Below are positions 10,376 to 10,737 of a stretch of 64,000 nucleotides of DNA, one piece after another. A model generated the notes under the pieces. That model was not told the origin of the DNA and did not search any database. It saw only the letters and a program-made list of their open reading frames with translations. This stretch comes from Octopus vulgaris (Eukaryota). Made by a program: the position numbers and the translations under genes. How positions within the stretch are numbered: position 1 is the first letter of the stretch; every line of letters starts with the position of its first letter. The stretch is taken from NCBI GenBank assembly GCA_951406725.2, contig OX597825.1:66774001-66838000 (forward strand). Reading direction: 5' to 3'.

Positions 10376-10737
10376 AATCGAAAACAGAGAGTTGCTTATT
10401 TGCAAAAAAAAAAAAAAGAAATATAAAATGTGACATCATTGACCGAGGTTACCGTGGTCTTTTCCGTAGGCTTTCTTTGCACGGGTAAACCTCACCTGTC
10501 CTCCCCTTTACACTTCATATTGACATTTCTGTGATAACGATCCCTATTGATCAATTTTTTTCCTCCCCCTTTTTTAAACCCCCTTTTTTTGTCCTCTTTC
10601 TCTCCTTTTACGATCCCTTTTGATCGAAACTCCCCCTTCCTTTTTTTTTTTTTTTTTTTCTTAAACCTTCAAAAGAAAAGCTCTACCTTGTAATTTGTTC
10701 TATCTGTGTGCAGCCCTGTGTGGCTAATAAAGAAACA
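9356..10737 (+). mobile_element. 5'-truncated, internally deleted Tx1/L1-clade non-LTR retrotransposon inside (TATC)n
   Basis: GC-rich RT ORF, then pyrimidine-rich 3' UTR ending AATAAAGAAAC; (CTAT)n on both flanks (9245-9355 and 10738-10870). Confidence 0.85.

Follow-up and report, generated by a model that had tools for sequence, protein, structure and literature searches.

Does a LINE that ends in the same letters as a SINE also copy that SINE? The question is raised by the window analysed here, a whole stretch of 64,000 nucleotides from the Octopus vulgaris genome (contig OX597825.1), which holds many copies of a SINE, termed SINE B, together with a LINE fragment whose 3′ end resembles one of the SINE's tails (tail-1). 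An earlier note, made from the letters alone, had taken the two as partners. In our assessment tail-1 is homologous to the 3′ end of an L1-type (probably Tx1-clade) LINE radiation, and the SINE has likely been copied by those members which insert into the SINE itself, not by the (TATC)n-inserting family of the window.

The window LINE and the tail of SINE B

SINE B is short (about 236 bp), non-coding, TSD-flanked and present in high copy number. The window holds about a dozen units with tail-1, and others that have the same head and core with a different tail (tail-2). The head contains what we take to be A- and B-box-like motifs, picked out by eye against the consensus; ARAGORN detected no tRNA in the window, nor did Rfam in locus L097. 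Octopus SINEs named OK, OR1 and OR2 were reportedly described by Ohshima and Okada in 1994. Another abundant family (A), SINE-like and with a microsatellite inside it, is found at 7287-7661, 5518-5878, 37512-37888 and 51020-51391, and its head is adjoined elsewhere by one tail-1 SINE (L097) and by two LINE copies (L056, L057).

The window LINE is flanked on both sides by (TATC)n tracts and lacks 910 bp at 10373/10374, a deletion that removed the C-terminus of ORF2 with its zf-RVT domain (Table 1). Full-length members of its family measure about 6.1 kb and encode an ORF1 of about 680 aa, in whose sequence a CCHC-like knuckle can be read, and an ORF2 of 1145 aa that carries an APE endonuclease, RT and zf-RVT. 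The best solved relative of this ORF2 in the PDB is human L1 ORF2p (E 3.8e-53, as against 3.6e-20 for R2), the closest named relative is an Argonauta hians protein (65%), and identity to 30 other RT loci of the genome is 23-29%. The domain set and an ORF2 closer to L1, among the PDB structures and 30 genomic RT loci compared, would place the family in the L1 superfamily.

Table 1. Positions of the LINE, its target tracts and the SINE B copies within the window (TSD, flanking duplication)
Feature	Position	Strand	Remarks
Dimer, tail-1 unit running into SINE position 53, tail-2 at end	1045..1445	+	
SINE B tail-1 copy with short duplicated head	3389..3637	+	16-bp TSD, 3373-3388 and 3638-3653
SINE-internal site, position 19 (second)	3420	+	Site used in other copies
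SINE-internal site, position 52/53, GGTATTTCG	3453..3461	+	Family S and SINE tail-1 ends lie here in other copies
SINE tail-1, about 58 nt, probably Tx1-type	3578..3636	+	Predicted hairpin GCCC/GGGT, 3612-3624, before AATAAA
(TATC)n tract 5′ of LINE, target	9245..9355	+	Bounds approximate; truncated copies in same context
5′-truncated LINE, RT part of ORF2	9356..10373	+	99% identical to full-length copy L038; Pfam RVT_1, E 2.9e-29
LINE 3′ UTR, fused to RT part across 910-bp internal deletion	10374..10737	+	
LINE terminal tail matching SINE tail	10686..10735	+	39/47 by local alignment
Predicted 4-bp hairpin AGCC/GGCT, 6-nt loop	10712..10725	+	Directly 5′ of AATAAA
(TATC)n tract 3′ of LINE, target	10738..10872	+	Bounds approximate
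Tail-1 SINE monomer	13675..13908	+	16-bp TSD
Stacked SINE B units, junctions at positions 53 and 19, final unit tail-2	18848..19815	+	End approximate
5′-truncated tail-1 SINE	35380..35515	+	11-bp TSD
Tail-1 SINE monomer	35931..36164	-	
Tail-1 SINE monomer, reference copy	43645..43878	+	SINE position 1 = 43643
Tail-1 dimer joined at position 53	48035..48455	+	End approximate
Tail-1 dimer joined at position 53	57997..58344	-	
SINE B, tail-2 variants ending (ATT)n	47309-48031, 46528-46844, 52890-53016, 30443-30539	-	

When the LINE end is aligned locally with the SINE tail (3588-3634), 39 positions are identical and 8 mismatched, with a single 3-nt gap, reproducing the hand count of 39 in 47 from the earlier note, and both tails terminate at the same AATAAAGAAA. 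The score of 45 compares with a mean of 17.9 and a maximum of 31 among 5000 resampled SINE sequences. Homologous and co-terminal 3′ ends, by which SINE-LINE pairs are recognised, are thus present.

The same note had named a chance-inserted SINE fragment as the case that would undo the match. This is ruled out, since the tail follows the LINE 3′ UTR in 30 of the 30 best-matching genomic loci and likewise in all of the first 30, in genome order, among 8,833 exact-tail matches, with a SINE body before the tail in none of either set; as all examined copies of the family end in it, the tail is not a stray SINE piece. In the 30 best matches to the 3′ UTR the tail is always followed by (TATC)n, truncated copies have (TATC)n at their 5′ side as well, and 6,204 of the 8,833 exact tails run directly into the microsatellite. 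This lineage is the most abundant one counted, and the identity of its older members to the young copy is 71-91%, an age compatible with a role as SINE carrier. Young and old copies of the lineage lie side by side in several (TATC)n tracts (L012, L029, L005, L014, L022).

TSDs of 11-16 bp had also been claimed for tail-1 copies. Exact-match repeats of 16, 16 and 11 bp bear this out at three of ten window loci tested, whereas six have none and one has a doubtful repeat of 9 bp. In the genome, 23 of 40 distinct tail-1-terminated loci have a repeat, scored at 8-26 bp with one doubtful, in a lenient search run without a null control and after removal of duplicated loci.

A LINE radiation and its common 3′ end

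A search with zf-RVT revealed many related LINE families with ORF2s 53-72% identical to each other, which form one clade together with the Argonauta protein (FastTree support 0.997). Only 50 of 150 listed matches were retrieved (one of them twice), from 25,799 candidates, which leaves the radiation under-sampled; one RT tree excludes 14 copies of the same family and, for short or broken matches, 54 of 132 loci. We regard the radiation as likely Tx1-like by domain layout and target preference, the proteins in both trees being unnamed. Preference for a target sequence, described as common in the Tx1 clade in the sections of Kojima (2015; PMC4494074) used here, is present in the window family and in a sister family, termed family S. 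The bivalve clades given in the cited part of PMC10294476 include Tx1 and no separate L1 clade.

In the sampled families, the 3′ end runs from a TGT/TCC-rich stretch through a short hairpin to an AATAAA-like signal that no poly(A) follows. A stem of at least 3 Watson-Crick pairs ending at most 3 nt from the signal is found in 15 of 15 tails as against a mean of 5.0 and a maximum of 11 in shuffles, although the structure was derived from the SINE tail and the tails are related, both of which the shuffle tests ignore. The stem letters differ, being GCCC/GGGT in the SINE, AGCC/GGCT in the window LINE and AACC/GGTT or GATT/AATC in others; all four stem pairs vary on both sides while 90% of cells are paired. 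A conserved 3′ stem-loop with compensatory changes is therefore present, in a short stem and among related sequences, and single tails fold no better than their shuffles (z -1.0 and +0.4). The "stringent" recognition assumed by the earlier note may be read from this conserved hairpin.

The match of the window LINE proved not to be the closest. Against its 45, ten other LINE tails of the radiation score 51-70 (L139 70, L238 66, L073 61, L055 61, L082 58, L148 57, L066 56, L245 56, the L175 group 53 and L076 51); an older (TATC)n copy scores 49, family S 41-45 and eight further tails 18-44, and 30 of 30 LINE loci outside the radiation stay at or below 23, the chance level. L139-type LINEs have a 32-nt stretch letter-identical to the SINE tail, and both best matches, L139 and L238, use other insertion sites. 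No LINE with the exact SINE tail was found by two tail patterns, whose 6 and 12 matches are all L066/L139-type LINEs or SINE variants, nor in neighbourhood searches starting at four LINE 3′ ends. The tail match by itself names the clade and not the partner family. For tail-2, no LINE partner was matched (scores at most 24) in 30 RT loci outside the radiation, mostly of one family. These loci may be labelled CR1-like and RTE-like.

Other families of the radiation have recurring 3′ flanks of their own (L066/L126-L134, L070/L084/L085/L087, L078/L079, L082/L086, L174-L203, L089); the flank of L089 is (TTA)n and the remaining ones are unnamed repeats. Rfam searches of seven loci returned solely microsatellite-driven miRNA matches under the gathering score and left the family targets unnamed. 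L078-type copies recur every ~5.4 kb at 73.04-73.07 Mb of contig G000:C2.

Insertion sites and the carrier of the SINE

Exact SINE-type ends number 105,874 genome-wide, a small share of which may be LINE ends with identical letters. They lie in the SINE's own position 53 in 23,136 cases, in its position 19 in 1,342 and in (TATC)n in only 61; reversed-pattern controls gave 0. The microsatellite thus holds about 0.06% of the SINE ends as against about 70% of the window-family ends, so that the common target preference which the proposed partnership led one to look for is absent, and the window family is largely rejected as the SINE carrier. The partnership stands insofar as the SINE tail is homologous to L1/Tx1-like LINE 3′ ends, and falls as regards the window family as partner.

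Family S behaves differently. It adjoins SINE position 52-54 in 29 of its best 30 matches and in 28 of the first 30 of its 68 exact tails, and so has an insertion signature in common with the SINE, at the same site and in the same register, with tail identity below that of other families. Long copies read as a SINE head, about 5.4 kb of LINE and the SINE remainder; a host head lies upstream in 16 of 20 retrieved copies, and in one of them (L312) ORF2 is open for 1134 codons. Among 12 copies (66 pairs) the LINE part is 97.7% identical and the host SINE part 91.0%, close to the ordinary SINE diversity of 90.1% (duplicated loci removed, as were L012 and L029 from a UTR identity measured alongside), which indicates separate insertions. 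Two truncated copies within SINEs (L277, L330) have duplications of 0-3 bp, unlike SINE TSDs, and one copy at a non-SINE site (L290) has a duplication of about 16 bp, measured by eye. The full-length copies (L312-L331) begin at their 5′ junctions with SINE positions 52-68, and a variant in these 5′ SINE bases is common to several loci and often unlike the 3′ copy; the RNA of family S is suggested to begin itself in SINE sequence. Position 52/53 lies between the A- and B-box-like motifs of the SINE head, exactly at the step from the 4-nt loop to the 3′ arm of a hairpin predicted there with a stem of 12-14 bp (43645-43740 and 3403-3500 of the window), and nicking guided by this structure may be offered as a guess.

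Position 19 has its own associates. A second LINE subfamily has an AGAA end in eight copies, two of them at this position. Of the SINE ends at position 19, 87 of the first 100 rows are the GGGC variant, as against 6 of 100 at position 53, counted by eye; three LINE copies of this subfamily (L245, L248 and L251) likewise carry the GGGC variant, and an AAGAA end. Three ORF1-only derivatives of an L076-like LINE (L304, L305, L306) were also seen, two of them at position 19; a deletion junction is common to L305 and L306, and its left end is found in L304 too.

Tails have moreover been exchanged between the elements, since L340 is a SINE body with a family S end and L296/L300, one duplicated event, is a family S copy with a SINE end, and the chimeras are joined in register. 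The bases directly after the tail are fixed per family or subfamily, independent of the host. Downstream of 53 distinct terminal SINE ends the sequence tends to be GGTAT (34, 32, 43, 39 and 36 of 53 at the successive positions) before the composition returns towards background, a preference allowed both by SINE-inserting LINEs as carriers and by the first alternative given below.

Given the directly observed tail homology, target sites, copy counts and independent insertions of family S into different SINEs, the carriers are most likely SINE-targeting lineages or an unsampled relative, and the window LINE is likely a cousin of the carrier, a sister family that inserts in the SINE. An older SINE with tail-2 would have gained tail-1 by a template switch or by a short LINE insertion just behind the core. 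As the LINEs of the radiation are without poly(A), ORF2p is proposed to recognise the small hairpin before AAUAAA, and its endonuclease would nick the SINE head at 52/53 (family S) or at 19 (the second subfamily). The RNA end may bear a few target-derived bases that aid priming, in which case SINE copies elsewhere would also begin their TSD with GGTA-like letters. When the target is itself a SINE, the cDNA of the incoming SINE could join the host head by homology, giving a head followed by 184-bp repeats that then expand locally.

Several points count against SINE-inserting members as carriers. The searches for a LINE ending in exactly tail-1 gave none, and the closest tails (L139, L238) belong to LINEs with other sites. 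Family S shares the main site, yet its tail match is no better than that of the window LINE; it is rare, with its 68 exact tails, relative to some 100,000 SINE ends; it is 93-97% SINE-targeted, whereas most SINE ends lie off that site; and some tail-1 units may be passengers in multimers that end in tail-2.

Alternatively, any member of the radiation including the window family may copy the SINE, the site being set mainly by pairing of the RNA end with the target and not by the endonuclease. The hairpin common to all families, the constancy of the bases after the tail whatever the host, the GGTAT preference and the abundance and long life of the window lineage all speak for this, but we consider it rather unlikely, as (TATC)n holds so few SINE ends, truncated window-family copies have (TATC)n at the 5′ side too, and the endonuclease is what mainly sets target choice in the account of Kojima (2015; PMC4494074).

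The SINE multimers bear on another alternative. Arrays consist of a head and 184-bp units, ten or more being reached, and in one series on contig G000:C1 (L392-L411) tandem units of 184 bp (from position 53) or 217 bp (from position 19) number up to 11. In arrays picked from the position-53 and position-19 SINE-end matches, identity among units is 97.1% inside one array and 90.9% across arrays; most of the additional units are therefore local duplicates, and 23,136 does not give the number of insertion events. Tail-2 terminates many multimers, mostly in one subtype, and a single TSD then encloses the whole. From this homogeneity and the single outer TSD it can be argued that tail-1 came once from a Tx1-like LINE and is now largely a passenger, the tail-2 multimers being moved by another LINE and the arrays made by DNA recombination. 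A head with position-53 units and a single outer TSD is, however, also expected from insertion into an existing SINE with a 5′ join made by homology, the plain nested form with its own TSD being seen at few loci (L104, L114). Tail-1 monomers have their TSD directly after tail-1, and in 25 dimers the tail-2 cores are 85.4% and the tail-1 cores 89.6% alike (a crude measure, a few units being mis-sliced), which fits tail-2 halves being the older hosts. We hold such a passenger status to be improbable, although the prevalence of one tail-2 subtype leaves room for dimers travelling as units. Finally, a chance likeness, or convergence on a polyadenylation signal in GT-rich sequence, would explain why the match takes in AATAAA and simple TG/TC-rich stretches, and is largely refuted and highly improbable given the score far above the null maximum, the 32-nt identity with L139-type LINEs, the in-register chimeras and the chance-level scores of other LINEs.

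Comparison with known systems

Animal L1-type elements are regarded as "relaxed" LINEs that accept any poly(A) RNA. The octopus system works like a stringent SINE-LINE pair, and for a broader reading we see about an even chance: that RNA selection in an animal L1-superfamily (Tx1) radiation depends on a 4-bp hairpin and not on poly(A); that this hairpin was captured by a SINE with over 100,000 copies, which became both passenger and landing site, with SINE subfamilies tracking different LINE partners and sites; and that self-insertion seeds the 184-bp arrays, a feedback loop in which safe sites for the carrier are built by its passenger. What the window adds is an abundant (TATC)n family with the same tail and a different target. 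Two questions become testable in an animal lineage that is without poly(A), has a covarying end hairpin and young, intact ORF2s, and differs in target from family to family: is tail-specific recognition ancestral to the L1 superfamily, and what share of target choice lies in the enzyme and what in the RNA end?

In the open literature we found no published SINE that shares its tail with a Tx1 LINE, Repbase, Dfam and subscription journals being outside this scope. The earlier note had called an L1/Tx1-clade partner uncommon, in agreement with Ohshima (2012; PMC3472496), whose 58 pairs include three in which the SINE tail is of L1 type, found in maize and Chlamydomonas. These are ZmSINE2/3 with LINE1-1_ZM in maize/sorghum and SINEX-3_CR with L1-1_CR in Chlamydomonas; they are plant or algal, end in (A)n or (T)n, and carry no description of target specificity in the passages cited (PMC3472496, PMC3747384). 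The octopus elements differ from them in the animal host, the tails without poly(A) and the site-specific LINE families.

The nearest likeness by target is SINEU, which according to the relevant parts of Kojima (2015; PMC4494074) is tied to Tx1-Mar of crocodilians by its target, the 3′ end of SINEU-1 being without a LINE counterpart. In both systems a SINE and Tx1 LINEs are linked via a common site inside another repeat, and the crocodilian genome also holds Tx1 families with microsatellite targets. SINEU has snRNA heads, poly(A) tails and a DNA-transposon target, whereas in the octopus the SINE itself is the target and the tail is shared. The Tx1 families Kibi, Koshi, Keno and Tx1L insert in microsatellites or multicopy repeats, as the octopus families do in (TATC)n and, for L089, in (TTA)n; compared by description, none of them is credited there with (TATC)n or a SINE head as target (PMC4494074). 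Lastly, one head and core with alternative tails, understood as a change of LINE partner, is likewise described for the MetaSINE, CORE and V superfamilies, whose partners in the cited portions (PMC4824008, PMC5786205, PMC4758252) are CR1, L2 or RTE, unlike those of octopus SINE B.
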